A DNA stretch of 64,000 nucleotides from Adineta steineri. Lineage: Eukaryota. The notes beneath the pieces are model-generated. The model did not search any database, was not told where the DNA came from, and saw only the letters and a program-made list of their open reading frames with translations. Below are positions 12,144 through 38,756 of this stretch, one piece after another. Position 1 is the first letter of the stretch. Every line of letters begins with the position of its first letter. The translations under genes were made by a program, and so were the position numbers. The stretch covers positions 327,403 to 391,402 of the forward strand of contig CAJNOI010000010.1 in NCBI GenBank assembly GCA_905250115.1, read 5' to 3'.

Positions 12144-12211
12144 GAGGGTGGGTGTGAGTGTGGATCTGGGTGCTACTTCTCTAACGATACTCACACCCAC
12201 CCACACCCTAT
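12144..12211. repeat. Telomere-repeat foldback hairpin #1 (G-rich arm ggagggtgggtgtgagtgtgga, 23-bp loop, C-rich arm actcacacccacccacaccctatc)
   Basis: A near-perfect inverted repeat of a degenerate TGTGGG-type repeat, read directly from the sequence. Confidence 0.8.
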
Positions 12212-13007
12212 CTTGTAAAATATTTTGTTATGTCTCTATTTGTAATAATAATATACTATATAATTATATTGGAATATCTAAAAAAGAAAAATGTAAATTT
12301 AAATGAGTCATTGTAAAGAATAGATCATATGAATCATCAATAAACAAATGAAGACTATATTCGAATTAAATCAACATTATATTTGAAAAAAAGCAATGTT
12401 TAAAACTAAAATAATTTCTTTGTTCTATATTATGACATCATCAATAATACTGTAGTAACAATTTTCATATCAGAGATTATTATTAATCTAATTGGTAAAA
12501 ATATTCATAAACATAGATATGCAATTCTCTTGATGGTGAACAAGTAACAAAAACTGTTTAGATATCTGAGATAATTCTTATCGATTTAATTGATAAATTA
12601 AAATGGTAATGTTCATTTTGTTTCATTATAATTCTAAAGATGAAAAGTTTTGTCACTTTTTAGATCATTATATTTATATGAATCAATTCAAAGAAAAGCA
12701 AAGAAATACTTGATTGATATTCAACTATTCATAGATTTGAAACTGATTTCATACCAGATAAAAAAATTTTCATCGACAGATTTCTTTTATTCAAATAGTT
12801 TTTGTTTACAAATCAACAAAACTTTCCTTCATTATATCATTAGGTGTTAGTAAAGTAATTAACATCTACTTTCAAATTCCACAACAATATTTTGTCAGTA
12901 TTGACAAGGCCTTGTCGTGAAGATATTTCTCTGTGTGACCCGCATATGAAAACACATAGACAATTAATCACAATAATTGATAAGCTTTCTTTTGATAATT
13001 TTATAAG

Positions 13008-13364
13008 AAAAAAGTGTTGCTCTGGCAGACTAGTGTCACCACCAATCCGCACAATTTCGTCATCGCAACATGTATTTGATCGGGTGGGATCATTTACCTC
13101 TTGGTAAGTTTGTAATAAGCAACTTTTCTCGATCGTCTACAGAGCACGACCTCTACTTTGTCTTTACACGTTTCATTCTTTCTTTTCTGTCTCTTACCAT
13201 GATATATATAAAGACAAAGTAGATATCGAGCTTTGAAAGGTGTTGAAAAAAGTTGCTTATTACAACTTACCAAGAGGTAAAGATCTTTCTCGATCAAATA
13301 CATGTTGCGATGACGAAATCGTGCGGACTGGTGGTAACACTAATCTGCCAGAGCAACATTTTTC
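13008..13364. mobile_element. Foldback/MITE-like palindromic element (~360 bp). Its central ~180-bp unit at 13098-13277 has ~25-bp TIRs (cttggtaagtttgtaataagcaact)
   Basis: The left half 13008-13097 is the reverse complement of the right half 13278-13364 (ttgctctggcagactagtgtcacc...cgatcaaatacatgttgcgatgacgaaat). The inner unit recurs at 38676-38840. Confidence 0.7.
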
Positions 13365-13620
13365 TATAAATTAAAAATAAAGAAAAAAAATGTCTATATA
13401 ACTTTTCGTATTCAATTTGATCGATCTAAAATATTTTACTTTAATTGATCACATGATATTGACAAAAATCGTAAAGAAATCTTTATCATCTATGACTCAT
13501 ACTGAATGATGTGGAAATTCTCGAAAAAGAATAGCTGATTCTCTTTCTCTTTCTTGTATCAAAAAACGAAATGTGTGTAGACACAGGAAAGAAAAGAAAC
13601 TTGAATTTGAATGTTTAGTT

Positions 13621-13846
13621 ATCGCTTCTCGGCCTTTTCGGCTAAGATCAAAGTGTAGTATCTGTTCTCGTCGGTTTGAAAGCCGGCGCTGGTCTCATTG
13701 AGGCCAGGCTCTTTCAAGCGGATTTTTGGACATCGGCCAGGATCACCCGAGTTCACTCGGACCTGTGCCACGGATCATCTCGACACTGCAGTGCCGTTGA
13801 GTTTGGTCCACTCCCGTTTCCTTCGGGATACGGGAATCTTAATAAA
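13621..13846 (+). ncRNA. U2: U2 spliceosomal snRNA
   Basis: Begins ATCGCTTCTCGGCCTTTTCGGCTAAGATCAAAGTGTAGTATCTGTTCT, near-identical to the metazoan U2 5' end including the branch-point-pairing GUAGUA. An Sm site GGATTTTTGGAC follows, and the 3' stem-loops show compensatory changes. Confidence 0.85.
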
Positions 13847-14123
13847 AATTTAAAAATGAAAATATAAAATATCTTCTACAAACCAACCAAAGAAATGGTT
13901 TCTGATCTTGTCTTTTATGTTAGTCATTTCACTTCTGTCTCGTTATATCTAATTATTACTCAAATTTTAATCAGTTCATATACAGAAGCAATTCTACCAC
14001 AATTTATTGTTTCTTTTTTGTTTTCATCGTTGTACTCTAAGAAACTGGAAGATGAGTAAAAGAGAATATGATTTATGAAAGATCAACATTCAGTCACTGT
14101 TTTACTTTATATCATAAATATTT

Positions 14124-14179
14124 CTTGAGGGTGTGGGTATGTATTTAAGCTATTTCGTATCTACACCCACACCATCAAG
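14124..14179. repeat. Telomere-repeat foldback hairpin #2 (cttgagggtgtgggtatg...ctacacccacaccatcaag)
   Basis: An inverted repeat with CTTGAGGG and CATCAAG termini. Confidence 0.8.
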
Positions 14180-14522
14180 ATGTGTCTTAAACACATCAGA
14201 TCTTTATCAGCTCCACTGATAAAAATCTTTATATTTTAATATAACAAATAGTGTTTAACTGAATCGATCGCAACGAAAACTTCGTTTTCATTATTAGTTG
14301 CTAAATGAAAGAATATGAACAAGATTTAGAAATATATTCGAAAATATAAGTCAACAATATGACAATCAACGAACTGTTTTTTTCTTATGAACTGTTCGAA
14401 GGCGTACACGAAACAATGATTACGAGTTTAATCACTGATTGTACAGCTTAACCATATTGATAATATCATATGTATATGTTATGCGGGTCTGATATATAAT
14501 TTTTGAAAATAAGACATAAATT

Positions 14523-15482
14523 TCAATAACAGATTCGCCGTTGCCAAGTTTTCAATGATTCTTTTAGTGTTTTTAGGTACAATTCCGATGGAACGACAAA
14601 TACAACGAAAACAAGTATTGAAGGAGTAAATGAAATGAAATAAGCAAGAAGATATAACCAAGGTTTATCAGATACCTTCACACATCCAGATAATAATGAA
14701 ATGATCAAACGTGGCATTGATAGAACAAGTAGAATTGCTGGACTAATCACTAATTGTTTATGTTCACGTAATTGTTCACGAATATGTGCAATATAATTCT
14801 GATTCGTCTGAGCTAATGACCGTTGTCGAGCAGTTCCGAAAATAATGAATAAAGCAGAAAAGAGATTAGCAATAAATGGACCAATTAGATGAATGAAAAG
14901 AATAGCTGTATTGTAATCTTGTACAGCAGAAGAATAATTAATGACACACCATCTATGTATTTCTATTATTTTCGTGTCACCAAATGTGTCTTTTTCTTGT
15001 ACTGGATATTCGAAGATATTGCGATGTAAAGGTTCGTGAATGATTGTAGCAATGATACAAAATGGTAAAATAAATATAATCCATCGAGCCAGACGTTTAC
15101 TCTTTTCTTTATTAAAACTAATACCTTGATAAACATTAATTGCTCGTTCAATAGCAACACAAGCATTAAGCCATGTATCAAAGTAAAGAAAAAGTTTCAG
15201 GATAGGTTCAATAGAAATACATCCACCTCGACGAACAGATAAATTAATTGATGAATTCGTTTGAGTGAGAAGAATAAACCAGAAATTGATTGTAAACATA
15301 GAAATTGTGAGAAAAGAAGTTATTGAAGATGCTAAAAGATACATTCCACATCCAACTTTTCTTAAATTTTCATTTTGAAATGTTAAAAGTGATAAAATAC
15401 TATTGATTAAACCCAAAAGAAACATAATCATTGTTAAAGCAACACTTATTTTCACTAATAATGATTGATTCTTCAATGTCAT
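14523..15482 (-). CDS. Rhodopsin-like 7TM receptor (orphan GPCR), single exon
   Basis: 319-aa ORF with seven hydrophobic segments, an ERA(I) motif at the TM3 end and a W in TM4, with no introns. It lies between hairpin #2 and an AT-rich intergenic stretch. Confidence 0.55.
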   Translation of the reverse strand: MTLKNQSLLVKISVALTMIMFLLGLINSILSLLTFQNENLRKVGCGMYLLASSITSFLTISMFTINFWFILLTQTNSSINLSVRRGGCISIEPILKLFLYFDTWLNACVAIERAINVYQGISFNKEKSKRLARWIIFILPFCIIATIIHEPLHRNIFEYPVQEKDTFGDTKIIEIHRWCVINYSSAVQDYNTAILFIHLIGPFIANLFSALFIIFGTARQRSLAQTNQNYIAHIREQLREHKQLVISPAILLVLSMPRLIISLLSGCVKVSDKPWLYLLAYFISFTPSILVFVVFVVPSELYLKTLKESLKTWQRRICY

Positions 15483-17369
15483 ATTTTTCTTAATTTCATA
15501 ACGTAAAATGTCATCAAGAGTTATACCAATACCTTTGGTTTGACTATTACATGAACCACCAATAATACATTTATCAGGATTTACTAAGAAAATAAAACAA
15601 AGATTTGAACTTTGATCGACTAAAGCTAACTATTTTATCCGATACGTAAAAACAAGTTTGATAAAGATATTTAGACCATTTATAATTTGAAATTCATGAA
15701 AGTAGATCTTTGATCAGCTATTAGATAATATATGAAATATCAAGTAAAACTCTTTTAGAATAAGACAATTTTCATCATTAATGTGCTTTTTGTATATCAA
15801 AGATCTCTAACAAATCATTCATTCTTCAATTTGAAGAAAACATTTGTCAATTTTCGGTACTAAGTAATAAAATTTAACATCGTACTGAATACTGAGAAAG
15901 TCAATACTTTTTTATTAAGTGTATTTTTACAAGATATATATCATCTAGTGATTATAACAATTAAAAAACATCGATCAATAGATATTCAGCCTAACATTAC
16001 ATCAATATTTTAGAGATGCTGAAAGTCATTGAAGAATTCTTTGTCTTTGTTGAAAACTTTAACAAGTCAATAAACTAAACAAAGAATGAAACTTCGATAG
16101 TAAACTTACAGAAACGTTTTAATCGATGAGTATTTAGTGATTCTATATGGTGAAGCACTGTTTTCTTCTTTAGAACTCATGCGTTGAAGGATCGATTATC
16201 TATGTATATTTGCCATTTCCATCGACTTATCCTTATCTTGTGTTTTACTGTTGAGAATCAAAATAATTTCATTTTTTGATTAAGTTAATAAGAAATAATA
16301 GTAAAAGATTCATTTATTCTATACTATAATAGTGAAAGATGAATATAAAAACGAATGAAATTCTATGAAAAAATATCAACTTGTGGCGAAATACTTCTAT
16401 TCTTGGTTATATGTAGTTTTACGTATATTTTGATTAACACAATGGATAATCATTAATCACAAAGGTTATTTCATCAATGTTTTTGTATTAGCTATCCTTA
16501 TTAACTTGATATATCCTCGATAACAACAAATATAAATATACAGAATAACGAAGCTATATTCGAAACAACTCATAGTTAAATATTGTTTCGGATAGAGTCA
16601 ATATTATGACAATAAGATGAGCTGCAGATATATCATTGAGCGTATTAATCGATTCTCTCTCGAAGTTCACTGATAAAGAGATCTAATTCGAAGTGAATGC
16701 AGGACAGTTTGAAAAAAACAGCCTAAAACTAGAAATATAAATAACGAGATATTGTGTCTAACTACATCGAAAACAGTCACTGAAAATATTTTTCTCGAAG
16801 TCGATATTTTCACAATATATTTTTAACCATTTCTGCATTTGCATCATACTAATAGTATCAATGTCGAATCATTTGAGAAGTGTCTTTTCGAAGATTATTC
16901 CCTGACTTCTCAAAATATCTCTATAACAATATGATAGTGTAGAATAGAAAGTAAGTCTGTCTGTGCTTCTTGGATTGTACACTACTGTACCAACCATACT
17001 TTTCGATCAGAGAGCCTGCAGAGAATCAATTCATGTCAAAAAGTTAAGAAGATGTGTGAGTTTTGCCAAAATTTCAAGAAATTTTTACTAAAATGTTCAA
17101 GTTCTGATGATAAACTTAGATAAAAACCTGACTTTTGAGTTATTATTATTAGTTATTTGACAGAATACATAATGAAAACACTCTTTGTCGTCTAAACCTT
17201 ATAGCAAATGCATAGTCTAAGTGTTTTTTATTTGGCATCCTTCAGAAGATCATACAAAGACACTTTATGATAAAACTTTGCGCTTTCTGCACAATTTTAG
17301 TCCCTTTCCATCATATAAAATAATGAGGGAATATAGCACCAACTATGGCGAAAAAGTATGAATACTTAC

Positions 17370-20300
17370 TAATACGTTTGACACTGGCGTTCGCTGGTCC
17401 AGACACAATGATTGAAAATGATCCTGTCACATCTGGTTTGATTGTTGTCACAACTAATATGTATTTAACATTGACTACAAGATTGACGGCGAGTCGAAAA
17501 TTTTCAAGGATGCATCCCAAAATGTTTTTTGAGATTAAATTTACAGATGGATCGAATGGGTCGAAATTGCCCTTGTAGATATATCCGAATTTATAAATAC
17601 TAGATTTACTTGCAATTATATATAATCCATTGGTGACTACATCGATTTGTATAGTTTCATAGTAAAAGTTTTTTTTGTTACAGATACGAGAATACTTTTG
17701 ACTATTTGCTGTTAGCTTTGATGAATACACCGATTGAACAACTGATGAAGTATCTAGTTAACAAAAAACAGATTTATCAGTATTCTATTCGTAGTACATG
17801 TAGATGAATTTGAATACTTTTTCAATGTCGTTTTTTTCAAATATATATCTACAGAGTGAAGATTTGGGACAAAGATCTATCTAATACGTTCAGCAAGAAA
17901 ACAGAAGGAAATCATAACGATTATTTCATAATCATTTCGACAGAGAAAGTTGATTATATTGTTCCAATTTTGTTTATTTTAAGATAATTCATGAATATTG
18001 CAGTATTCATATTTCTGATGGAATAAATGCAGAAAATGTTAAAATTACGGTTTTATATTGAAATATAGTGAAGAAACTTTGATAAAAGATATTATCGATG
18101 GTTGCCTCATTGAAATTTCATCTTTTGAGAAGATGTGTAGAACTTAATCGAACTTTTAATAGAAAAGATTTCACTTTAAAATCAGATATTACATCCAATC
18201 AATTAATCTTTTAATTTTATAAGAAACAGTTTCTTTTAAACTTCAAGTAATTCCTACTGATCTCGCTGACATCTTATATCTGTTGATTGTAATCAATTTT
18301 GGGACTGAAAGTTCGTGTTGGATACTATAAAAGGATGGATGTGGTATGGAATCTGAAAAAATTTTACAAACTTCTAATAAAAACGAAAGCTGTTTCAGAT
18401 ATTTTGTTATTTAAGAAAGGCTCAAAAGATTTTCCGCTTTGTTCGAATAAACAAAATAAAATTTGAATTTTCTAAATATCATTTATGTGTAGTGTATTGA
18501 CACTGAATTTTGAACAATGATCCTTGTAAATATTAACCTCTAATTGTTTCGGTAGTGAGTTTTTGAAGATTTTTAGTGAATTCAGAAATCCGATTGAGTT
18601 TAACATACGTTTTTTGACTTTTCTCTTTTTGAGACTGACTTTTACTAATAGTATAAGTACTCACTTAGACGTTCGAGAGTTATGTTGCTGACACCAGATA
18701 CAATGATTGAGAATGATCCTGTCACGTTTGGATTCCTGGTTGTCACAATCAAGATGTATTTAGTACTGATCTCAAGGTAAACTGAGAAGCTGAACTGATT
18801 GTTAAGGCAGCTGTTGTCGTCTGTTGAGATCAAATTTTTTGATGTATCGGATGGATTGAAATCATCTCTGTACATAGTAATAAGTATATCGATACTGCTG
18901 TTGCTAGCAAAAGTATAATAGCCACTCTCATTTACATTTACTTGTATCGCTTCATAATAGGTTGAATGATCGCAGCCAGTATTCGAATACATTGGATGAT
19001 ATTCTGTGAATACTGATGAGTAAATCGAATGAACGACCGATGAAGTATCTATTCAATAAAAAACAATCAGATGAAAATTCGTAACATATTATTAAACTTA
19101 TACAAATTTTTATCTAGTTTTTTGTTCGAATATATGTACTTAAAGTGCATATTCCATGATGAAGCTGTAATAGTTATCTTGTATGACTTTTATGAATGAA
19201 AGGGTATGGGTGAGGGTGTGGTTGTTATTAGAGCGCTACACTCTCATCCACACCCTTCTTTCTCTTGATTAAAATTCTGTATTTTTGATATTTATTAACT
19301 CACAAATCTATGCGAAAATTTGTTACAAAAACAATAAATAAAATGATTTCTTTGTGTGAACGTATCGAATTAAAATGTATCAACAACGTTCAATATGTTT
19401 TATTTTGAAAATATTTAGGAAGAAAATATGTGCATATCTAAACAAATAATGTATTTTAATCGTCAATTTATATCATCGTAATGTTTTCTCAACATTTCCA
19501 AGGTATTATAAAAATGTCGTCTTAACGAATTTGTTTTTGTTACGATGTCATTAGCAAAGCATCTTGACACGGTTACAGATATTCTGAATAAATAAAAAAA
19601 TTTAGTCAGACGAATTTGTGCTTAGTTTAAATAAAAAATATTTCACTTGAAATATGTATTATTTCGGCGGAACAGAATCGCGAAAACTAACTTTGATTTT
19701 TCTCAATGAGATCAATCATTTTATGTAAAGGTCTGATATTATTCTCATATATCGCTTTCGAAGAGTAATGAAAACAGAATTCTGTTTATGATCTCTTGAT
19801 TATTTTCATGAAAGTCGGTTAAATCCTTATCTTTTTTCAAAAAGAATTTGTGTTGTCAACTGTGAAATATTTCATCATATCAACATTATGAAAAAAGTAC
19901 CTCTTTCGACTCTATTTCAACTATTTTCGTTCTTCTCAATATCAAAGATCAAATCTTACACTAGAGAAAAAGGCGAATATCTGTTTTTCGAGTATTTTAC
20001 AATGTTGAATGTTGTCTGATAACAGTTACTTAAGCTGAATTTCTTTCTTACAAGTATCACTATATGTAGCATTGAATAGAAGGCTCATCACACGAAGGAC
20101 TCTCATGCTTAATCACTTCAGTTCCGCATACATATTAACTAATTACATATGAGAGAGTTACAATAACTGATGCTTGTTACATTATAATCATTATACGAAT
20201 GTATCGATGATATGAGACAAACGATCGTTAATGATCTGTTCAAGATTATTTTATATCTGACCATATTAATACTCAAAGAGTATTTCAATAGCACATGTCG

Positions 20301-22443
20301 ATCATTTTTAACTCACTCATAAGACCTTTTTCTATCCGACAGATGAGGAACTCTAACTACCAGCACTAGGTGTATTTTCACTTTTGTAGATGCGATAGTG
20401 AACAACAACTGTGAATCTATGATAATATTACTGTTATTTATTTATACCCACGTAATCTCAATATTTGAAAAGTTTTCGGCAAAGAATAAAATATCGAGAA
20501 GTTACTGTTGTCAAGTTTTAATAAGTACATTTTTCCGTTCATGTCGTCCTCTTCGTTCAAGTATTTTTGTAAAAGAGGATATTTAGCATATGAAAATTCT
20601 ATTTTGAAACAGTGATCTTTGCCAATATTTTTTTCTATTCAACGCGGAACTTTTCAAGATTTCTGACGAATACAGAATTGATATTGAATATACGTAAATT
20701 TTCTACGCTTTGTACTTCTGCGCTGATGTTTATAAATAGTATAGACACTCACTTAGACGTTTGAAAGTGACATTATTGAAACCAGACACAATGATTGAGA
20801 ATGTTCCTGTTACATTTGGGCTATACGTTGTCACAACCAGTTTATTCGTAGTGGTGGACCGAAGAAAGGGTCTCATCGGAAACTGAAGTTCAACGAATCT
20901 CTTATCACTCTCCGGAATTAAATTTATATATGGACCAGATGGATAAAAATTTCCTGCGTATATGTAGCCTAATGTATCGTTAGTGCTGTTAATATTAAGA
21001 GTATAATAGCGACTTTCATTGACATTCATTTGTATGGCTTCATAATAGTAGTTTGGAACATCACAACCGGTAGGAGAATATGTTGGATGATTTTCTGTTA
21101 ATACAGATGAATACACTGATTGAACACTTGATGAATTATCTATTTAACAAAAACAAATCAATCAAAATTTATGAAATATTAAATAAATTTCAATGATTTT
21201 TATTATTTTTTTTCTTTTCGATATATCCTCCGGTGCGTGGCTGTTCGTATATAAATAATCATTATTATTTGCATACTGCTTTTACTGGTCAAAAAAACAG
21301 GTTACGTAATCATTCAACATTACCTATAATCGAGACTATCGGATACAATTTGTCTTTCTTCCTCATAGTAAAATATAATATAAATCTTGGTGTGGGCGTG
21401 AGTGTACTGGCTGGAATATGAATATGCTATTCACTAGTGGGTGCGGGTTCCTTCTTTGCTTACGTAAGCAGACATTCACACTCACACTCACACCCACACC
21501 CCACCCTCAAATGAATTTTTCTGTTATTGAATTATTTTAAACTTACCACAAGAACTTAATAAGAAATCAAATTTTTGAATGCGATGATTGGACTTATCAA
21601 TAATAAATACGTTTCCGTAACTATCGAAACTAGGACTCATTGGAAAGGATAATTGATGAGATTCCGATCCTACCCAATAACATCCAATTATACATCGAAT
21701 ATCATTTGGTCCTGATCGAATTATACGATGATTATGTTGATCGACAATAAAAAGATATTTATCAGCATCTAATACAATTCCAGATGGACATGTGAGTGAA
21801 ATAGTGTTATTTGATGATTCTTGTCCAACTATTGTTGTTCCATTTAATTCTCCAGATTTAAATAATTGTATTCGGTGATTACCACAATCTGCCACATATA
21901 AATCAAAGTCTAAATCAACAAAGATTCCCATAGGATCCTGAAGTTCATTTGAATCAGATCCTTGAATACCTGTTCCAGCTGCAGTTGTTAATATCATTTC
22001 ACTATCATTTAACCATCTTTTGATAACTTTATGATCATCATTCATTGAACAATATAAAGTATCATTAATATCGATAAAGATACCAAAACATGATGAATTA
22101 ACATTCATGACATTAACAAAAGTATCTGTATTTGATATCCATTTATCGACTCGACTATTCTCATAACCATTATCATAATAAATATCACCATTATTTGTAA
22201 CGAAGATAGAGAAAGATTCTCCTAGTTTATCAGGAGTAATTTTATTTGGACTGATACTATTGTTAATCCACGTTAAGATTTCTTTCTTGTCGTTATTAAC
22301 TGTATAAACTGTGTTGTTTGTATTGATAAAAAGAGAGGCAGTATCTTCCCCAAGTGTTGTTTCGTTAGCAAAAGTAATTCCATAAGGATTCCATTCTGCT
22401 GTTGGACAAAACTTTGGTTGATTGAATGAAAGTGCTAAAATGA
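17370..22443 (-). CDS. Secreted NHL-repeat protein gene. One ~920-nt NHL exon (21524-22443) is followed by three tandem paralogous exons: A 20753-21139, B 18665-19048, C 17370-17753
   Basis: NHL motifs are present: GNHRIQLF, HNHRIIRSG, SNHRIQKFD. An N-terminal hydrophobic leader LKLFILALSF sits at ~22440 (exact ATG not resolved). A ggtaag donor follows ...SSCG at ~21521. The three downstream exons are 387, 384 and 384 nt. Each begins after a ...tag acceptor with ATAmTTCATC and ends with CTAA|gtgagt or ATTA|gtaagt. All are phase 1-1 and are mutual paralogs sharing ...YYEAIQ.NVNES.YY...NLI...TT..P.VTGSFSIIVSG..N.T.KRL. The 3' terminal exon was not found. Confidence 0.6.
19198..19256. repeat. 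Telomere-repeat foldback hairpin #3 (gggtatgggtgagggtgtgg...acactctcatccacaccc)
   Basis: An inverted degenerate TGTGGG repeat. It lies in the intron between paralogous exons A and B. Confidence 0.7.
21386..21510. repeat. Telomere-repeat foldback hairpin #4 (~125 bp; cttggtgtgggcgtgagtg...cacactcacactcacacccacaccccaccctcaaatg). The loop holds an inner palindrome ttgcttacgtaagca
   Basis: An inverted repeat. It sits inside the first intron of the NHL gene, between the donor at ~21521 and the acceptor at ~21140. Confidence 0.8.
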
Positions 22444-23012
22444 AAAGTTTCAGATAAAAATTTTCTCCAAATAATTTGCCTCTTCAAACACATATTGTTC
22501 GTTAAATGTTCCTTTTATTTAAAATAATTCATTTACAAAACATTGTCAGTTTGACTTAGACATCAAAATAATTAATATTTTAGAAAAAATTTGATTTCAT
22601 CAAACAAAAAATTCTCATTTGACAGCTTTATAGAATATTTTGTTACATTTTCTATTTTCATCTTTGTTAAATCGAATCAATTGCTCATCTATTAGAAAAA
22701 TTCAAGAGAATAACGTTTGATTATTCTCTTGGAAATCAATCATTAATTAATATAAATCTTAAAGCTAATTTTACAATGAGTTTATGAATAAAATACACTC
22801 TTCTCATTTAACATCAAAATATGCACATCATGAATTCTATTAGATGTTTCTAGTTTTCCTCTCCTTAAACGTTTTACAACTATATTCTTATTGTTGTACC
22901 TTTATCAATATACTTCAATGTCTAATCATCTATACTTCTATACTTGTCACACTAACTTTAATCTAAATCTATATTTGTGTATCTCTATACTAATCACTAT
23001 GATCTTTTTAAA

Positions 23013-23066
23013 GAGAATGGGTGTGGGTACGAATAAAATAGAATACTCACACCCACACCTTCAAAT
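23013..23066. repeat. Telomere-repeat foldback hairpin #5 (gaatgggtgtgggtacg...actcacacccacaccttcaa)
   Basis: An inverted repeat read from the sequence. Confidence 0.8.
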
Positions 23067-27293: not shown

Positions 27294-27785
27294 TGTAAAT
27301 TATATAAAGATAGTAGCGGAAAAACGAGACTATAAAGAAAAATAAGTTTTTTTTTTCTGTCTTGGTAATATGAAGTACATTTATAAGAAGAGATTTCTCG
27401 ATGATTATTTCACATGAATTAACTTGAAGAAAAGAAAACGAGAATTTTTTTGTTATTTCTGTCATGAATCAACAATTAGTTAAATATAGAATAAAATACT
27501 TACCATTTTCTTCACAATATATAAACTAATACATTGATACCAAAACTAATTGTCTGAGGGACATTGGCATGTTTTTGATATGGAGTTAAATATATACATT
27601 ACACTTAAACACGATAAGAAAAATTAATGATCAAGATATATCTGTTGAATGACTTACGCACAGGGCCAACTTCAATTAATAATAAGAGAATTAAAAATAT
27701 AATGAGAGTAATTATGGCACAATTTACTAAAAATAAAATTAACTATAATCGACATACACAGCGTCCTTGCGATTTACCATGAATA

Positions 27786-27840
27786 CGTGGGTGTGGGTCA
27801 GGATGTGACTAAATAATGATAAACACCCACACTCTCAAGA
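27786..27840. repeat. Telomere-repeat foldback hairpin #6 (cgtgggtgtgggtcagg...aacacccacactctcaaga)
   Basis: An inverted repeat read from the sequence. Confidence 0.8.
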
Positions 27841-30500: not shown

Positions 30501-30562
30501 CTTGAGAGAGTAGGTTAGAGTTAAGTGTGCGCATAAGGATAGTATAACACCCACACCCTCAG
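30501..30562. repeat. Degenerate telomere-repeat foldback #7 (cttgagagagtaggttagag...acacccacaccctcag)
   Basis: CTTGAG and CCCTCAG termini. It directly abuts the 5' truncation point of a TPR fragment. Confidence 0.55.
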
Positions 30563-30918
30563 TTCACGAAAAAGCCCTAGCAATTCGACAACAATCACTG
30601 CCTTCCAATCATCCTGATTTAGGTGGTTCCCATAATAACATCGGTAATGTGTATAGACACATGGGTGACTATTCAAAAGCACTTTCATCTCATGAAAAAG
30701 CCCTAGAAAGTCGACAGCAGTCACTTCCTTCTAGTCATCCTGCTATGGTCAGTTCCTATAACAACATCGGAATTGTGTATGATATCATGGGTGATTATGC
30801 AAAAGCTCATTCATTTTATGAGCGTGCTGTACAAATTGGACAACAATCATTACCAATAAATCATCTTAATCTTCAAACATGGAGAAAAAACCTCGAGCAC
30901 ATAAACAAGAAATTATAA
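30563..30918 (+). pseudogene. 5'-truncated TPR fragment (C-terminal ~118 codons of the ART-TPR family) with a conserved 3' UTR
   Basis: The reading frame starts mid-repeat (HEKALAIRQQSLPSNHPDLG...) immediately after hairpin #7. It ends ...AHSFYERAVQIGQQSLPINHLNLQTWRKNLEHINKKL*. The 3' UTR matches the 3' UTR of the 904-aa gene (reverse strand, 60660-60732) and of the copy at 33967-34050. Confidence 0.7.
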
Positions 30919-31608
30919 TTTGTTTCTGTTTTTTTTTGAAAGTAAAATAAAGCTGCTGGAAAAGAAAATGTGTCTTTATTGAAACTCTGTTCTTGCTGAG
31001 AACATAATAGGAGCAGTAACACTCAGCGGTAAGGTAAACGATATATATTGAAAAGTTATATATGTACATATATTATATTTGTATCAACATTAAATAATAT
31101 ATGAAAAAATTTCTATCATTTTAAAATATTGAAATTATGCTTCTCAAACAACATCAATAATGAGTCATATTTTAAACGAAGATCAGTATATGCAACTAAG
31201 ATATGTGTAGGCTGATACAAATGAATAATTCTTTTTTTTCTTCTTTAGATATATGATACAGAACATTGAGAATCTTAAATGACTACTACAGTAGTTAGAT
31301 TTCAAAGTTAATGAGCTTCTTAATTTTCAAAAAGATTTCAATATTTTGTAAGTATTCTTTGGATATTATACAAAAAAAAGACAAACCAATTATGAATAGC
31401 TTTTATATAAATACTCCATATTTTACCTTGTAATCCGTCATAAAGTAAAGATAACGAAAAGTGATATTTTATATGAGTCATGTTGACTCTTATCGCTTAG
31501 TTACTATTGTAGTCATATATCACGATTATCGTCATTACTAATACGATATACAATATATATATATATATTCTACTACAATTTTATTTCATTTATTCATCAC
31601 ACAGAAAA

Positions 31609-32465: not shown

Positions 32466-32700
32466 TAGTTGCCATCGATTTGTATTATTTTTCTAATAAT
32501 TTTTAATAAATATCAATTGTTAACTTTGTCATATGTATAATCCTATTTGAATTATAAATAGTTTTCTCGAATACATATGATAGTACAACTATACAACAAA
32601 ACAACATATAGAAGAAAACAAGGAGATTTAAAATAATAATAGAATATTTAATTCGAATAATTTACCAGATAGATAAAATTAACTATTTAAAATAAATTTC

Positions 32701-32745
32701 GTGGATGTCTACTCTTTGTATTCACATCCCCACTCACACTCAAGG
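32701..32745. repeat. Weak telomere-repeat-like foldback #8 (gtggatgt...tcacatccccactcacactcaagg)
   Basis: A short imperfect inverted repeat with a CACTCAAG end. Confidence 0.35.
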
Positions 32746-33444
32746 TTCATCAAATATCAAACTTTTAGAAAGTGCTTGATTTTATAAAAAGTAGAAATTC
32801 AATTGGATTTTCTGCTGAAAATCGAAACAAATATTGATCAACTCTCAGTCATATCTAAATATAGCCATATTCGCATGCGGATCGCGACAGTCTAGAGTCA
32901 AATGAATCAAGTTTCGATGAACGTTACTTGTTATCAAGTAGTAATAAAAAAAATCTATAAGAACGACAAACAACTACTAATATGAATAGTTTCTTCTGCA
33001 TTTCATATATTTGACCATAGAAAGTAAGAAATATAAGTGTTTTGTGTCTGAATAGCAATATTTTGTCAATTTTTATAAATTATAATGTCTACGATAATAT
33101 AACTATTTGCAACTTTTGAGTCTTCAATGATATGAGACATGAGAGCAGAAAGAAAACAACCCTAGACTGACATGTGTACAAAAACACTTAAGCAGTTCTT
33201 TTTTGTTTTCTACTTATTAATGAGGAATGTATATGTTGATCTCCGTTTGGTTTCATAATAAACATCTATAATTTTCAATGAAAAGGGCCTGGGCGTCAAA
33301 TTAAGAAAAAAAAGAAAACAAAATCCAAATAGAAAGTAGAGACACTATAAAATGAGCTATTCTAATCATTCTCTTACTCGCAAAGTTTTTCAAGCTACTC
33401 AAATACAACATATTCTTAGTAAAAGTAGCAAATAATCAGAACCA

Positions 33445-33966
33445 ATGGCAACTAGCAAATCAAGTGGTACAAAAAAAATTAACCTAGCATCTGGCGAAAT
33501 TTATCAAGCTTTACTTAATGAAACAACGAATGACAGTGACAAGGCAAGTATTTATCATCAACGAGGTCGAATCAAATATTTTCAAGGCGAATATCGAGAA
33601 GTACTTTCTTATTATGAAAATGCTCTTGTAGTTCAACGACAATCACTTCCTTCCAACCATCCTGATTTGGGGGGTTCCTATAACAACATCGGTAATGTGT
33701 ATAGACATATGGGTAATTATCCAAAAGCACTTTCTTATTATGAAAAAGCTCTTGTAGTTCAACGACAATCGCTTCCACCCAATCATCCTGATTTGGGTTC
33801 TTCCTATAATGATATAGGTAATGTGTATAGACACATGGATGACTATTCAAAAGCTCATTCATTTCATGAAAGTGCTGTACAAGTTGGACAGCAATTATTA
33901 CCAGCAAATCATCTTAGCCTTCAAAAATGGAGACAAAACCTGGAACACACAAAAAAGAAATTATAA
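33445..33966 (+). CDS. TPR-only short paralog (173 aa; first TPR units joined to the last TPR units of the ART-TPR family, with no ART domain); possibly a pseudogene
   Basis: It has its own ATG (MATSKSSGTKK...). ASGEIYQALLNETTNDSDKASIYHQRGRIKYFQGEY is parallel to AQEIYYDLLNQTTDESDKAPLYYQLGWIKYNQGEY in the 904-aa protein. Three TPR units follow, then the conserved tail ...HSFHESAVQVGQQLLPANHLSLQKWRQNLEHTKKKL*. The shared 3' UTR is cut at 34048 by hairpin #9. Confidence 0.45.
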   Translation: MATSKSSGTKKINLASGEIYQALLNETTNDSDKASIYHQRGRIKYFQGEYREVLSYYENALVVQRQSLPSNHPDLGGSYNNIGNVYRHMGNYPKALSYYEKALVVQRQSLPPNHPDLGSSYNDIGNVYRHMDDYSKAHSFHESAVQVGQQLLPANHLSLQKWRQNLEHTKKKL

Positions 33967-34047
33967 CTTCTTTCTGTTTCTTTTTTTGATAGTAAAATAA
34001 AGCTGATAGAAAATAAAATGTGTCTTTATTGAAACTTTGTTCTTGTT

Positions 34048-34117
34048 GAGCGTGGATGTGGGTATGAAGGCAGGTGGATTTTCAGATGATACATACCGAC
34101 ACTCACAGTCTCAAGAG
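34048..34117. repeat. Telomere-repeat foldback hairpin #9 (gagcgtggatgtgggtatgaaggcaggtggat...acataccgacactcacagtctcaagag)
   Basis: An inverted repeat that truncates the TPR 3' UTR. Confidence 0.7.
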
Positions 34118-34383
34118 TAGCAACGGAAGTGAATAATCTAAGTTAGTAAGAATTCTTTGTATCCCTTTCAAATAATAATAATATTATTCACCTTAAAAGG
34201 ATTTCTTCTCTGCTTGTAAGAGATAAGAACAAACCTTCATATACACGTCTGAGATAATGTTACATAGCAGAAAAAAACTTAAAAAATATGCATTCTCTCT
34301 TTCTGTTTTTCGATAACAAACAGTGCTTTTCTTTAGTCAACAAAGGTGCAAAAAAGCATCAAGCTTTTATAGTTCTTTTCACA

Positions 34384-34437
34384 AAATTAGATCGAGTGGG
34401 TGTGGGTATGTTAATAGATGTATTATAATTTACACCC
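34384..34437. repeat. Telomere-repeat foldback hairpin #10 (gagtgggtgtgggtatg...tacacccacgccctca)
   Basis: An inverted repeat read from the sequence. Confidence 0.8.
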
Positions 34438-34550
34438 ACGCCCTCATTTTGCTCCTTCGATCTAAACTTACAAATTGTAAGTTACAATTTAAAACTGCAC
34501 TGACTCAGTTCGCATGCTGCAATTTTTTACATACCAAAAACTGGGTGACT

Positions 34551-34649
34551 GTTAAGGGTGCGGATGGAGGTGGGTATAGGTGTGAGTGATGTTCGTATCC
34601 AACGCTCTCACCCACAGCCATACTATCCACACTCATATCCTACCCTGTG
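34551..34649. repeat. Telomere-repeat foldback hairpin #11 (gttaagggtgcggatggaggtgggtataggtgtgagtg...ctctcacccacagccatactatccacactcatatcctaccctgtg)
   Basis: An imperfect long-armed inverted repeat. Confidence 0.65.
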
Positions 34650-35220
34650 ATATACAAACTAAAATATACACCATCCATTACTTTGCTAGCGTTGAGGAAA
34701 CAGCGAAAATTTCTGTCAGCATACCCAAACAGCTGATTATGCTACTGTTTTAAAATGCTATATTTCGTCAAAAAGTTAATTTTATACAACAGTGTGGACG
34801 ATGTTTTCATTGTATTCTTGAATTCAGATTAGAATAAAATGTGCAAAGTCGCTTGAAAGCATCCTTCAACAAAGTCGAAATCGGTCGTGGTATGCTCTTC
34901 GTCTAACTTGCGCCTCAGTTCCAAAATTCTACAGTTTGTTCAAACATTGCTTTTATACAACTGTGTAGATCATGTTTTAGTTTTATTTTTTAAATTAGAA
35001 TCTGACTAAAGTACTTTGAGAATTAAATTACGTTATCACATCGAACTCATATTTGTGCTTATATATCGTTGAAATTTGTTTTGTAATCTCATATCTCTCT
35101 GTATTCATGATACATTACTGTAGTTATAATAATTCAGAACATACCTGATGATGACTATTTAAGCAATATTCGATATATGTCGTAAATATTTTAATTTAAT
35201 CATTCCTTATTGATTATCTA

Positions 35221-35335
35221 GTCCACACTCACATCTCATACCTAAACTAACATCTATACTCACCCTCACTCACACCTAAATCCAGCACATCCATACCCAC
35301 GCCCTCACAGCCACACTCCATATTTACACCCTCTT
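35221..35335. repeat. C-strand-only degenerate telomeric tract (~115 bp of CACAC/CCCAC-rich sequence with no partnering G-arm)
   Basis: cacactcacatctcatacc...caccctcactcacacc...ccatacccacgccctcacagccacactcc. Confidence 0.6.
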
Positions 35336-35505
35336 AATCTGGTTGAGACAATGACGATAGAATAGAACAATAGTTGATCTGTTCGATAGTTCGATTATAA
35401 AAGTCTTTTTATTTTGTGAGTTTCTCTTCAGCTGGAGAGAAGTAGACTTAACAATTATAGAATTATCAATAATTCTATAACGCATATGCTCTACTATACA
35501 TTATC

Positions 35506-36435: not shown

Positions 36436-36573
36436 TTCTGTCGTTACTCTTGGAAATGAATTAAGTATACAAGTAACCTGCTACTCTCTTATCTTTGTAA
36501 ATGTTGAGTGCTATTGTATCAGTGAGTTTGATTAACTTTACAGCATTTATTATATGGTAACAGAGAGAACAAT

Positions 36574-36688
36574 AGGGTGTGAGGGCGTGGATGTGGATGT
36601 GGGTGTAGTTTGACTAGAGGGTGTAGGTATGAATCTTATAATCTTTTCTCCAACTATTTCATCTTCAACACCTACACCCACCCTTAAG
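36574..36688. repeat. Telomere-repeat foldback hairpin #13 (gggtgtgagggcgtggatgtggatgtgggtgtag...gagggtgtaggtatg ... acacctacacccacccttaag)
   Basis: An inverted repeat read from the sequence. Confidence 0.75.
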
Positions 36689-36923
36689 ATGACTTTTACT
36701 GTTCGTATTTTTGAGTTTCTCTTTTCTGTTGGTTTCTTATCACTTGAAGATTGTAAGTGACTGTGCATGTTTCTGTTGATGATTGATAAGAGACTTTTCG
36801 ACGACGAAATATCAGGTTATCAGTGAAAATTTCCAACTATGTGTTGCGTTATAAAAGAAGGCATAGAATGAGTTTTTTATTTAAAATTTCCAAGTTGACT
36901 AGGGTGTCGAATAATTGAGGATT

Positions 36924-36993
36924 CTTGAGGGTGAGCGTAGGTGTGGGTGTGGGTGTGGATGAAGATGACACATCTACACTCACACTCTCAATG
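36924..36993. repeat. Telomere-repeat foldback hairpin #14 (cttgagggtgagcgtaggtgtgggtgtgggtgtggatg...atctacactcacactctcaatg)
   Basis: An inverted repeat with CTTGAGGG and CTCAATG termini. Confidence 0.8.
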
Positions 36994-37152
36994 TAATTGA
37001 CATTTATTATTACAATTTGTAACTATGATTAATCTTTTTGTAACATATAATCTTCAATAAGATATATGTGCTACTATAATCTAGCATAACTAGTTTATTT
37101 TGAAAACAATTTTTACAAAAAAAGAAATAAAAAAAGTATATTCATTCTTTTT

Positions 37153-37860
37153 CTAAAAACCGGGTTCATGATGAAAAGCAAATTCTATATCATCACAACA
37201 TCTTTTTACTTGACTAGCCATAAGTGTATTTCCTGCTAGAAAAACACTTGTTGATTTATGTTCTGCTTTAAATTTCGAGAATAAAACTTTCCACGGAGGC
37301 CGTCCAACATTTGTTGACGTTTCCAATCCGGTATGTATATCATACTGTTGCATATCTGCATAGATATTAGCAACAAGATCATAGGGAAGAGCTTCTAATG
37401 TTGCTTTTTTATTCGGTTGTAATAATGTACGATATAGATGCATATCTAGATATCTTGATGTTGGTTCTGTAGAATTATTTCTTGTAGCAGTCATAATATT
37501 TAAATAATTTTCCTGTGCATTTCCGATTTCTTCAAGAATATCACGATAACTTGAGAAACTTTCAATTTCACGATCAATCCAAAAAAGTCTACTTTCTTAG
37601 GTTGTTGCTTTGATGTTTATGTATAATAATAACTGTAAGCATTACAACTAACACACACACATCGGTGATTTTGTACACGTTGAGTTAAACTATCCAAAGC
37701 ACTTATAGAAGGTGTTACTCCTATACCAACACCTATTAAAACTATATGTTTACTATTAAATACATGTGATGTACAAGTACTAAATGGTCTTTCAATCCAA
37801 ATGTCAGCATCTGGATCATTCGCTAAAAATGTAATCTCTTTTTAACTAAAATATTTCTTA
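37153..37860 (-). pseudogene. NADPH oxidase (NOX/ferric-reductase family) C-terminal NAD-binding fragment. The TM/heme and FAD domains are missing
   Basis: HIVLIGVGIGVTPSISAL matches the NOX VMLVGAGIGVTPFASIL. NVGRPPWKVLF, TSVFLAGNTLMASQ and the C-terminal FAFHHEPGF match NOX LYGRPNW..., GVFLCGPEALA... and ...FIFNKENF. There are two exons, with a stop immediately upstream of the first. The fragment is bounded by hairpins #14 and #15, and the upstream space is occupied by ELL. Confidence 0.55.
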
Positions 37861-37877
37861 AATTATCATTGGAATGA

Positions 37878-38756
37878 TTAGTGTGTGGGTGTGAGTACTC
37901 TGCTCAATCGACATCCACACCCACACCCTATCTGATCTTTTGAACTTGAATTTTGTATTGGTAAAGATAATCGATTTGCAGTTGATGATATAGATGGAAT
38001 GTCATTAGTTGCATTAACTTGATGTTCTTTTATTCTTTTTCTAACAATTTGTGCTTCTCTTTTTGTATAAAAAGGCCAATCATAATTAACTTCTCCACTT
38101 GTTAAAATACTTTTTAAAAGAAAAAAGTCTCCACTATTTGATTGTCTTGATATTGATGATAATAATGAATCAAATTGTTCTTTTTCATCATCACGCATTC
38201 CACCTTCACTTTTTAATCGACAAAGAAGATCTGGTTTTTTATACGTACTTGCAGCTAATAAATGAATAAGTCGTTCTCTTAATGGTCTATCTGAAGGTGA
38301 TGATTGAGTATTTGTTGTTGGACTAAGACGTTTTTCTTGATTTGTTACAATTCGTTGTTCAATAAGACCACAACTCTCAAGTTGATCTCGATTAACTTGT
38401 TTGATACATTGAAATATTTCGGATGTTTCATCTTCTGGTAATATTTGAAATGAATAGATTTTTTCTTCATTATTATTTATTGGTATTGAAATTTCTCCTC
38501 CACTACGATTAAATTTAATATTGGATAAATTTTGTTTTTTATTTTGTTGAATATATGTCTCAATTGCTTCCATACATGAACTAGTTAATTTAATAAATAT
38601 ATGGAGTTTTCCATCATGATTTGATGTAGCATCTGCATTTAATCGAAATCTATTATTTCCAGGAAGATTTCTATCCATTCTTGGTAAATTTGTAATAAGC
38701 AGCTTTTCTCGATCGTCCACAGAGCACAACATCTGCTTTATCTTTACACGTGTCAT
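37878..38756 (-). CDS. ELL: RNA polymerase II elongation factor ELL homolog, N-terminal ~280 aa only; the ORF terminates inside hairpin #15
   Basis: KLHIFIKLTSSCMEAIETY, ISIPINNNEEKIYSFQILPEDETSEIFQCIKQ, RPLRERLIHLLAASTYKKPDLLCRL and NYDWPFYTKREAQIVRKRI align with the ELL N-terminal domain (SVFHVKLTDSALRAFESY..., RPFRDRVLHLLALRPYRKAELLLRL, QKDWPGYSEGDQQLLKRVL). No occludin-homology C-terminal domain is visible. The 5' most ~20 codons lie within a MITE copy. Confidence 0.6.
   Translation of the reverse strand: MTRVKIKQMLCSVDDREKLLITNLPRMDRNLPGNNRFRLNADATSNHDGKLHIFIKLTSSCMEAIETYIQQNKKQNLSNIKFNRSGGEISIPINNNEEKIYSFQILPEDETSEIFQCIKQVNRDQLESCGLIEQRIVTNQEKRLSPTTNTQSSPSDRPLRERLIHLLAASTYKKPDLLCRLKSEGGMRDDEKEQFDSLLSSISRQSNSGDFFLLKSILTSGEVNYDWPFYTKREAQIVRKRIKEHQVNATNDIPSISSTANRLSLPIQNSSSKDQIGCGCGCRLSRVLTPTH
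37881..37932. repeat. Telomere-repeat foldback hairpin #15 (gtgtgtgggtgtgag...catccacacccacaccctatc)
   Basis: A near-perfect inverted TGTGGG repeat. The ELL ORF reads into it (…IGCGCGCRLSRVLTPTH*). Confidence 0.85.

Follow-up and report, generated by a model that had tools for sequence, protein, structure and literature searches.

The short foldback elements clustered in one 26-kb interval of the bdelloid rotifer Adineta steineri are probably scars, each marking the head-to-head join of two ends that telomerase had healed, in a mosaic of subtelomere type. Telomerase, or less probably an Athena-type reverse transcriptase, would be the enzyme and end joining the ligation step. The window is the whole stretch of 64,000 nucleotides analysed; in all, the analysis drew on some 150 kb of A. 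steineri sequence. The telomere repeat is TGTGGG.

Telomere-like tracts, elements and neighbouring genes

The window was scanned for 18-mers with no more than 4 mismatches to (TGTGGG)3. Twenty-three telomere-like tracts are present, all within 12143-37933, against 0.04 expected under a first-order Markov model of the window; the clustering given in the original prediction is borne out. Permutations of the telomere hexamer are nearly restricted to 12-38 kb (CCACAC, 13 of 13; GGTGTG, 13 of 13). Degenerate TGTGGG/CCCACA occurs at all fifteen sites predicted. The layout claimed for every site, a G-arm, a loop (here, spacer) and a C-arm, is found at 14 of the 15; #12 is a lone C tract, and E4 and E13 carry two G tracts each. 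Elements are 44-126 bp in size, with arms of 8-40 nt and 7-64 nt of non-telomeric filler between the arms. Tract pairs no more than 150 bp apart in A. steineri sequence are G-then-C in 13 cases and C-then-G in none (P = 1.2e-4), which agrees with the predicted miniature telomere-telomere topology, both G strands running towards the spacer. DNA hairpin folding is seen in 9 of 15 elements (z <= -2.6); in the same DNA fold test #7, #8, #9 and #13 fold no better than shuffled sequences, and #12 has no G-arm and no fold (minimum free energy 0). E7 (#7) and E8 (#8) are weak elements, E4 (#4) and E13 (#13) are composite.

Features are as follows (no strand is assigned to the interval or the elements).

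Mosaic interval, 12144..37928: borders formed by E1 (left) and E15 (right).
E1, 12144..12209: G-arm, 26-nt spacer, C-arm; left border of the mosaic; DNA fold z = -3.4.
E2, 14124..14179: foldback CTTGAGGG...CCATCAAG; z = -5.5.
E3, 19198..19262: old foldback, common to paralogous blocks.
E4, 21386..21511: composite, with two G tracts.
NHL-repeat gene, 21524..22453, minus strand: complete, single-exon, between E4 and E5.
E5, 23013..23065: old foldback; the alignment to locus L004 passes through it.
E6, 27786..27839: G-arm added at a break within a C-type lectin gene.
E7, 30501..30562: highly degenerate G-arm starting with CTTGAGAG.
E8, 32701..32744: weak foldback upstream of a copy of the TPR gene, its G-arm 8 nt long; fold not significant.
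E9, 34048..34115: G-arm added 85 bp beyond the stop codon of a TPR gene copy.
E10, 34394..34446: foldback; z = -4.1.
E11, 34551..34650: foldback with long, degenerate arms; z = -2.6.
#12, 35221..35337: single degenerate C-strand tract of 117 nt; not a foldback.
E13, 36574..36688: two G tracts, 40-nt spacer, C-arm ending in CCCTTAAG.
E14, 36924..36993: CTTGAGGG...CTCTCAATG; left border of the NOX-fragment module; z = -3.4.
NADPH-oxidase C-terminal fragment (NAD_binding_6), 37153..37494, minus strand: between E14 and E15.
E15, 37881..37928: C-arm adjoining the truncated ELL gene; right border of the mosaic.
ELL gene, 37929..38756, minus strand: 3'-truncated at E15.

The interval 12144..37928 is assembled from segments of different origin, with telomere-repeat junctions at the joins. 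Collinearity with L002 and L003 (allelic or other-individual copies, 96.6%) stops at 37929. Window positions 14126-27787 are collinear, in inverted orientation, with the contig-end locus L004 at 83-92% identity. The same gene neighbourhood is present on a second contig. The Occludin_ELL domain is present in the ELL gene of L002 and missing from that of the window.

The NHL domain was found by Pfam in the single-exon gene between E4 and E5. Its coding part is 22453-21527 (minus strand), with the stop codon at 21524-21526; tblastn with P0121, P0122, P0127, P0131 and P0132 spans 300-319 aa without gaps or introns. E4 lies 12 bp 3' of the stop codon, E5 about 560 bp upstream of the gene, and E3 outside it. 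Two elements had been placed in introns of this gene; since it is single-exon, no element lies in an NHL intron.

Telomere addition and the joining of ends

A double-strand-break end or a shortened chromosome end would first gain a short TGTGGG run on its 3' strand by telomerase, that is, by de novo telomere addition yielding a neotelomere. Two ends capped in this way would then be end-joined nose to nose, with 7-64 nt of filler between them. One strand would thereafter read retained DNA, G-arm, spacer, C-arm, retained DNA, and the hairpin potential of the elements would be a by-product of the joining.

At E6, E9 and E15, and at a young event in L004, homology to an uninterrupted paralog or allele runs precisely up to the outer arm edge and no further. 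One flank only continues the parental sequence at E6, E9, E15 and L004 17.3-17.7 kb, and the G strand is in every case added to the 3' end of the DNA that was retained, running 5'->3' away from it. One-sided breaks of homology exactly at arm edges are the signature of de novo telomere addition. At E6 the window reads ...CATGAATACG followed by TGGGTGTGGGT; L004 and L005 read ...CATGAATACG followed by AAGTTTTTCATT, and there the lectin gene continues. At E15 the window reads ...CCACACCCACACCC followed by TATCTGATC, as against ...GTTGTTGTTGA followed by TATCTGATC in L002 and L003, where the ELL gene is intact. The C-arm of E7 adjoins a TPR gene fragment truncated at its 5' end; the minus strand of the window has ...CGTGAACTGA followed by GGGTGTGGG, the parental TPR units ...CATGAAATGA followed by AAGTG, TGA being derived from the parent and the next G added. 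The G-arm of E9 stands directly 3' of a parental TTGAG (window ...GTTCTTGTTGAG followed by CGTGGATGTGGG), its counterparts being three paralogs with TTGAG followed by ACCACAG or AACATAA. The parent sequence at E9 is already TTCTTGTTGAG; no palindrome is seen in it, and the right flank of E9 is unrelated to the parental continuation. In the young event, L004 17297-17673, which belongs to the same genome, 140 bp kept in the window and in L005 are missing; in their place stand a filler of 195 bp, a G-arm of 21 nt, a spacer of 18 nt and a perfect (CCCACA)n array of 137 nt, which adjoins the point where homology resumes.

Complementarity of arms is 19.0 within and 18.5 between elements (P = 0.30); the arms resemble independent samples of telomere repeat. 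The spacers of the 15 window elements are no more similar to one another than shuffles are, and no source for them beyond chance was found within the window. In simple telomere-telomere fusions elsewhere, for example human 2q13, the arrays abut directly; the unexplained spacers count against the junction-scar reading. Metagenome contigs that are AT-rich and bdelloid-like also contain such head-to-head junctions, with arms of up to >150 nt. Five junctions of one metagenome have the spacer GGGT-AAAGA(G/A)A in common, which could be a core that is templated or of common descent instead of random filler.

Start motif and age of the seams

The shared CTTGAG/CTCAAG termini of the original prediction are real and occur in environmental bdelloid-like contigs as well. 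Of 57 non-redundant arm starts, 10 carry exact CTTGAG, whose frequency at random positions is 0.27% (P ~7e-16); with no more than 1 mismatch it stands at 20 of 57, against 5.2% at random. All 8 strict cases have T at position -1. The motif is on a single side only in many elements and is absent from 3 of the 5 junctions with known parents (E6, E15, L004); among these 5, addition of the whole CTTGAG to a non-matching end is never seen. TTGAGG is also found within arrays (L044; L002 1500-1520), and the TGAGGG variant is frequent in the arms.

The recurrent G-strand start A-n-T-CTTGAG-GG probably reflects the telomerase RNA sequence directly 3' of the core template, either by a preference for ends able to pair with the RNA beside the template or by copying of the complement of that stretch into the first repeat. 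Pairing with, or copying of, the RNA adjoining the template is the suggested origin of the motif. Because TTGAG at E9 is parental, the motif belongs to the addition site or to the telomerase template and not to an inserted element. The conserved start motif of 8-9 nt exceeds the usual microhomology of healing sites, which counts against reading the elements as junction scars.

E2, E3, E5, half of E4, E14 and E15 are old seams copied with their neighbours by segmental duplication, which explains the degenerate arms. Degenerate arms are old and perfect arrays young, just as mammalian interstitial telomeric sequences are degenerate when old and exact when young (PMC2246262). E2, E3, E5 and half of E4 are common to the 83-92% identical blocks at contig ends. 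E3, located between tandem paralogous units, is homologous to L004 15352-15440 and L005 15391-15415, both flanks included. The alignment of L004 8321-11804 to window 24950-21516 spans E5, whose copy in L004 lies at about 10300-10355. E8 is probably homologous to L002 4683-4737.

Seams were re-used later: the flanks past one arm differ and the spacer and other arm are common. This pattern fits renewed breakage inside the telomere-like tracts, or else ectopic recombination or break-induced replication there. The E2 homologue with identical spacer (L004 21050-21105) shares the Seg2-side flank; on the other side it continues into a paralog of window 41261-40699. In E4 the older G-arm and spacer (21386-21438) are common to L004 13060-13170; the newer part begins with another G tract, the short GGGTGCGGGTT, which is followed by a spacer of its own and then by a C-arm adjoining the 3' end of the NHL gene. 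The E14 homologue (L002 3507-3570, also in L003) has different outer flanks. E15 matches a module at L002 4496-4537, at 87% identity, from the G-arm through the spacer into the C-arm.

Other explanations and known systems

A non-autonomous foldback or MITE-like transposon, with terminal inverted repeats of CTTGAG plus telomere-like repeats and many insertion sites, is improbable. The inverted termini CTTGAG...CTCAAG kept in the window and in unrelated bdelloid-like contigs, the spacer core of the five metagenome junctions and the hairpin potential of most copies speak for it, and like foldback/MITE DNA transposons the elements are short, hairpin-capable and bounded by inverted sequences of short repeats. 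Unlike such transposons, they lack target-site duplications (observed mean 2.9 nt, null 3.4 nt) and clean empty sites, and they show no internal similarity across the family. Arm length ranges from 8 nt to >150 nt of perfect telomere repeat. With the unrelated window spacers, the arms that do not co-vary, the one-sided motif, the breaks at E6, E9, E15 and L004 with a single parental flank and the parental TTGAG at E9, these observations leave unsupported the original view that shared termini denote a discrete element rather than telomerase healing. It is likewise improbable that remnants of the Penelope-like retroelement Athena/Terminon are involved, and slightly more so: these would be extremely 5'-truncated copies or (ACACCC)n/(TCACCC)n 3' tails and not products of telomerase. 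Published copies are capped by short telomeric stretches, their 3' ends bear reverse-complement repeats including a TCACCC variant, and host genes are captured between copies (PMC6431247); the frequent TGAGGG variant would fit. Rfam, however, detects no hammerhead ribozyme in the window (sole match, U2), no reverse-transcriptase domain is present among the ORFs tested, and from the published model the mechanism would place repeats on the two sides in one orientation instead of as inverted pairs. The suggestion that the elements are ends of this retroelement is thus not upheld.

Programmed breakage is about as doubtful as a transposon. A nuclease would cut at (A-n-T)CTTGAG and telomerase heal both sides, as at the SFE of O. 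tipulae or the Cbs of Tetrahymena; foldbacks would be re-fused break sites, or pre-seeded sites giving two telomere-primed ends when the spacer is cut. The length of the start motif, and E4 and E13, re-broken and re-healed inside existing elements, favour it. The motif is, however, absent at three of the five known-parent junctions, E9 parental sequence has no palindrome, and TTGAGG within arrays fits templating better than cutting. Bdelloids are also not known to undergo programmed elimination, which weighs against it. The palindromic layout resembles the 29-bp palindromic SFE, with its GGC/GCC sites seeding neotelomeres: both are degenerate palindromes in which each half can seed a telomere after a central break, and both lie towards chromosome ends (PMC13060919). 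The SFE is a defined motif, necessary and sufficient for programmed breaks (PMC13060919), whereas length, arms and spacers vary in the rotifer. An assembly artefact, in which telomere-repeat reads led the assembler to chimeric joins or palindromic fold-backs, is hardly credible. Telomeric repeats do pose difficulties for assembly, and long arrays could make metagenome contigs chimeric; against this, versions of E2, E3, E4, E5, E14 and E15 that differ by substitutions are present in independent assemblies of other individuals and at paralogous loci (L002-L005), flanks are not inverted duplicates, and the gene neighbourhood recurs on a second contig.

Human 2q13, the site of an ancestral head-to-head telomere-telomere fusion, has the same topology: along one strand a G-strand array leads into a C-strand array, between flanks that were formerly separate ends. 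It differs in that the rotifer arms are tiny and separated by non-telomeric filler, and in that 14 rotifer junctions in 26 kb join kilobase-sized fragments, not whole chromosomes. Interstitial telomeric sequences of rodents and primates were inserted by telomerase in double-strand-break repair (Nergadze et al. 2007, PMC2246262); in rodents, break-site microhomology is present and nucleotides 3' of the template are copied along with the first hexamer (PMC2246262), as would be the case here. Short tracts at former breaks, in-register nucleotides (PMC2246262) and exact young as opposed to degenerate old tracts are further likenesses. The mammalian tracts have one orientation and contiguous flanks, whereas the rotifer has two facing tracts with a spacer, mostly joining unrelated segments, and a longer start motif.

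Organism group and repeat are shared with the short telomeric stretches of bdelloid subtelomeres, truncated Athena/Terminon copies and the neotelomeres proposed for A. vaga (PMC2861651, PMC6431247, PMC13564844). None of these three papers describes inverted pairing across a spacer as a systematic feature, or a CTTGAG start that is conserved. Neotelomere formation at breaks has been proposed in A. vaga (PMC13564844). The setting is the same: TPR, NHL and other genes of multigene or foreign type, fragments of genes, and segmental duplication from one chromosome end to another (PMC2861651, PMC6431247, PMC13564844). The 26-kb interval would be a mosaic of subtelomere type, in which gene fragments and whole small genes are joined at such seams.

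Telomere-like tracts and the mosaic that holds them

Fifteen telomere-like sites (E1–E15, numbered left to right) occupy 12144–37928 of the window, DNA of the bdelloid rotifer Adineta steineri in which G + C content is ~28%. Degenerate TGTGGG and/or CCCACA tracts are present at all 15, as originally predicted; TGTGGG is the bdelloid telomere repeat (PMC7943196, PMC8494291). Scanning of both strands for 18-mers with ≤4 mismatches from (TGTGGG)3 returns 23 tracts in the window. Every one lies within 12143–37933, which bears out the predicted clustering in one interval; 0.04 tracts are expected under a first-order Markov model. The sites are real and non-random. No telomere-like tract is found in the 21.8-kb gene-rich AADAT locus of A. 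ricciae, a negative control that is not syntenic.

The foldback layout that had been claimed for every site, namely a G-arm (TGTGGG-like), a spacer and a C-arm (CCCACA-like), stands for 14 of the 15 and fails for E12, a lone 117-nt C tract. Two G tracts each occur in E4 and E13; E7 and E8 are very weak as telomere-like sites. Folding of the single-stranded DNA gives z ≤ −2.6 at nine of the 15 sites. Neighbouring tracts ≤150 bp apart run G-then-C in 13 cases and C-then-G in none (P = 1.2e-4; A. steineri sequence: the window, L002 from another assembly, and two contig-end loci with paralogous blocks, L004 and L005). Every arm obeys one orientation rule, by which the G strand continues the retained DNA at its 3′ end. 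A G-strand array followed by a C-strand array on one strand is the layout of a head-to-head telomere fusion; unlike in such fusions, the arrays here do not abut directly, with spacers of 7–64 nt in the window and of 7–18 nt even at young junctions. The best explanation of the sites is that DNA ends capped by telomerase were joined there head to head, as seams of a mosaic of subtelomere type.

Genes and gene fragments in the window (window positions)
5–11 kb: WD40 gene
Ends at 27785: C-type lectin fragment
30563–31063 and 32937–34050: TPR gene fragments
37153–37494: NOX C-terminal fragment
37929–38756: ELL gene, truncated
38840–40096: aminotransferase gene

Mosaic segments also hold intact small genes. 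The NHL gene (22453–21527) is complete and single-exon, because five homologs of ~300 aa align without interruption (tblastn). Two elements had been placed in its introns; E4 lies 12 bp past the stop codon and E5 ~560 bp upstream, and an intron or introner reading is thus ruled out. The sole gene model spliced across an element is the annotated chimeric ELL+NOX gene, which, unless it is expressed, probably arose in annotation as a result of the rearrangement. In the public annotation it is 451 aa long (37153–38678, minus strand, corresponding to L001 8314–9839), with truncated ELL spliced across E15 to a NOX NAD_binding_6 fragment.

A full-length U2 snRNA gene (13621–13816, plus strand; 138 bits, E = 4e-28) is located in mosaic segment 1, between E1 and E2. 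A large palindrome centred at ~13190, with 67-nt arms (13110–13176 and 13199–13265), is a copy of the bidirectional ELL–AADAT promoter region (80% identical to 38679–38839). Its flanks (12478–13570 together with the palindrome) are inverted copies of sequence 3′ of ELL and 3′ of AADAT in L002 (7984–8580 and 9841–10000) and in L003 (11624–11977), the copies of other A. steineri assemblies. It looks as if ELL and AADAT had been removed from between, or inserted between, long inverted repeats around ~13190. In L003, from the other haplotype or another individual, AADAT is set apart from the next gene by ~2.1 kb (11498–13595) that the window does not have; part of this stretch resembles window 13279–13570. 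Three tandem paralogous coding units (17311–17730, 18645–18992, 20730–21116 (−); 42–53% aa identity, no Pfam match) have E3 between them and E4 after them, an arrangement found also in L004 and L005. The gene for a 904-aa protein (TPR + ADP-ribosyltransferase; 60733–63447, minus strand) has tandem units of 126 bp (42 aa); the mosaic TPR fragments at 30564–30865 and 33592–33913 are 5′-truncated copies of its family, with fewer units each. A second G-rich repeat type, (GGGAT)n / ATCCCATGGGAT palindromic, occurs at 28377–28446 and 29348–29467, is unrelated to TGTGGG and forms 30-nt inverted repeats with 83% complementarity. For the left mosaic boundary in the other haplotype, a WD40 exon query matched metagenome fragments only and no A. 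steineri protein; look-up of a 319-aa GPCR-like ORF gave no record, and none exists for the ohnologous copy (P0009).

Junctions against uninterrupted and duplicated copies

From 37929 to the right, L002 and L003 follow the window collinearly (~96–97% identity), with ELL intact. The collinear stretch ends precisely where the E15 C-arm has its outer edge. The junction reads ...CCACACCCACACCC|TATCTGATC in the window and ...GTTGTTGTTGA|TATCTGATC in L002; on the ELL sense strand, ...CAGATA is followed by GGGTGTGGGTGTGG, which is the signature of telomere addition at a broken 3′ end. The pattern at E6 is the same, with ...CATGAATACG|TGGGTGTGGGT in the window against ...CATGAATACG|AAGTTTT in the L004 and L005 lectin genes, which are intact. 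At E9, ...GTTCTTGTTGAG|CGTGGATGTGGG of the window corresponds to ...TTGAG|ACCACAG or ...TTGAG|AACATAA in three paralogs; beyond E9 the window sequence is unrelated to the parental continuation. At E6, E9, E15 and position 17674 of L004 the tract starts exactly at the end of homology to the uninterrupted copy.

In L004, 140 bp present in the window and in L005 are replaced by 195 bp of unrelated filler, a 21-nt G-arm, an 18-nt spacer and a near-perfect 137-nt (CCCACA)n array, which stops exactly where homology resumes. In this event, what reads as a genuine neotelomere of some length is fused head to head with a short one, and the chromosome region would also have become continuous again. The filler (L004 17297–17490) is composed of ~25–35-bp tandem units (ACAATTCGGCC / ACTATTCGTCC / ACATTTCGTCC ...).

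Positions 14126–27787 are collinear, in inverted orientation and at 83–92% identity, with L004, the terminal part of contig 5 in the same assembly, and also with L005 at a contig end from another individual. The L004/L005 blocks contain E2, E3 and E5, as well as the first half of E4, with the same spacers. They are therefore older than the duplication, and the 15 sites are not all independent local events. The elements common to the 83–92% identical blocks are degenerate, and the array specific to L004 is near-perfect, in keeping with interstitial telomeric sequences, in which mutations build up with age. E2 and its L004 homolog have the spacer, both arms and one flank in common and diverge beyond the second arm. 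E15 has the G-arm, spacer and part of the C-arm in common with an L002 module and diverges beyond. E4 has G-arm and spacer in common with its duplicated counterpart and then runs on into a new short G tract. This pattern of shared core and different flank fits re-breakage or ectopic recombination in telomere-like tracts, not transposition. Some seams were passed on by segmental duplication, and breakage or recombination probably took place at them again later.

Terminal motif and occurrence in metagenome contigs

Arm starts were set by scan and then made non-redundant (n = 57). Exact CTTGAG is present at 10 of the 57 (17.5%) vs 0.27% of random positions (P ~7e-16), which upholds the shared termini of the original prediction; with ≤1 mismatch it is present at 20 of the 57 (35%) vs 5.2%. 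It heads even a 155-nt array (L036, a metagenome contig). In the strict motif set, T occurs at position −1 in 8/8 and A at position −3 in 7/8. TTGAGG is found inside arrays too. TGAGGG is a common variant repeat in the arms, in agreement with the TCACCC variant that PMC6431247 reports from telomere-associated elements of bdelloids.

Over five informative junctions, the parental bases that may be microhomology to the telomerase template are TTGAG at E9 (parental sequence already reads TTCTTGTTGAG), TGA at E7 (next G new), G at E6 and none at E15 or in the L004 event. E6, E15 and the L004 event begin directly with (T)GGGTG. It is quite possible, though short of probable, that the telomerase RNA has, immediately 3′ of its core template, the complement of (A-n-T)CTTGAG, with pairing ends preferred and the stretch copyable into the first repeat. 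Pairing and copying next to the telomerase template behave likewise in rodent interstitial telomeric sequences (PMC2246262), where a template-adjacent stretch is copied with the first repeat, as would be the case here. The telomerase RNA would then contain 5′-CCCACACC(C)UCAAGAnU-3′, with CUCAAG directly 3′ of the template, and the conserved start is a concrete search string for the bdelloid telomerase RNA. Literature search gave no match to the motif 13- and 14-mers, and every 8-mer match was irrelevant.

Metagenome contigs were scanned with GTGGGTGTGGGT-N(0-30)-ACCCACACCCAC, which returned 46 loci. About a dozen are AT-rich and bdelloid-like, with head-to-head arrays of up to >150 nt and spacers of 7–30 nt. 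The rest are unrelated and include hairpins from bacteria, TG microsatellites and a palindrome that recurs in another organism. Eight Ga0307508 contigs (L011, L013, L017, L024, L026, L032, L038, L045), with G + C content of 44–51% and not rotifer-like, have one conserved palindromic element (GGGTATGGGTATG...CAAAGGTCAGACCCACACCC) in common, with similar flanks. That element makes up a true repeat family of a different organism. The spacer GGGT-AAAGA(G/A)A is common to five junctions of one metagenome (L016, L023, L036, L044, L051) and could be due to read-through past the template boundary, or to common descent with flank swapping. If such spacers are read-through products, the species from which Ga0116226 derives should have UCUCUUUA-like sequence 5′ of the template.

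Alternative origins and biological meaning

The sites are not a mobile-element family. A discrete foldback element type, as originally proposed, or a MITE or foldback transposon does not agree with what was found: target-site duplications are not seen beyond chance (longest flanking direct repeats mean 2.9 nt vs 3.4 nt in mismatched flank pairs), common internal sequence is lacking (best spacer–spacer alignment score 9 vs a mean shuffle maximum of 9.7), and none of the four informative comparisons shows a clean empty site: either the break is one-sided, or 140 bp have been lost in a replacement. Alike spacers are found only between paralogous copies that also have a flank in common. Arms do not co-vary, complementarity within an element being no higher than to the arms of other elements (P = 0.30); with no excess within elements, a hairpin-copy origin of the arms is rejected as well. 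A simple insertion at E9 with a contiguous right flank was hinted at by MAFFT and rejected on local alignment scores within the shuffle range.

Ends of Athena/Terminon elements are likewise an unlikely origin. Unlike in those, neither a hammerhead ribozyme nor a reverse-transcriptase body adjoins: Rfam at gathering threshold finds only the U2 snRNA in the window, and no reverse-transcriptase domain occurs in the ORFs tested, which include part of the short ORFs. Spacers locally templated in the manner of polymerase theta are rejected, the longest matches being no better than shuffles, and no copy of the spacers is found elsewhere in the window. As to programmed breakage of SFE/Cbs type, for which a conserved motif is expected at every break site, CTTGAG heads 17.5% of arm starts exactly and 35% with ≤1 mismatch, and three of the five junctions whose parents are known do not have it.

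The general phenomenon is already known: bdelloid subtelomeres have short stretches of telomeric repeat, and scars of telomerase-mediated repair and head-to-head fusion sites have been described. Systematic inverted pairing with a spacer and a conserved CTTGAG start appears to be undescribed, in literature that does not cover all key 2007 and 2017 work. A joint reading, unlikely in its entirety, is that bdelloids routinely cap both fragment ends by telomerase and ligate them head to head, the CTTGAG start being an extended template/anchor of the telomerase RNA or a break-and-heal site, and the foldbacks being pre-seeded fragile sites. If that were true, the capped fragments would be the animal's own DNA after desiccation breaks, or possibly foreign DNA. 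Paired inverted repeats would be the physical mark left when gene cassettes of subtelomeres, expanded gene families and perhaps genes acquired horizontally are put together. With its A-n-T-CTTGAG consensus, the conserved start would point to the extended template/anchor region, or else a dedicated recognition site for breakage and healing. A foldback cut in its spacer would yield two ends already primed for telomere formation. If the seams are only routine subtelomeric debris, their value is for annotation, as they account for the truncated ELL and the chimeric ELL+NOX model in the assembly.

Bdelloids survive massive chromosome breakage, and their foreign and duplicated genes are unusually many near chromosome ends. 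The seams bear on the way in which pieces of DNA, broken or incoming, become joined in. If the seams are neotelomere pairs joined head to head, they would provide a sequence-level signature that is countable genome-wide, datable and searchable in irradiated or desiccated lines. Such a search would be a direct test of the recently proposed transient-neotelomere model (PMC13564844).
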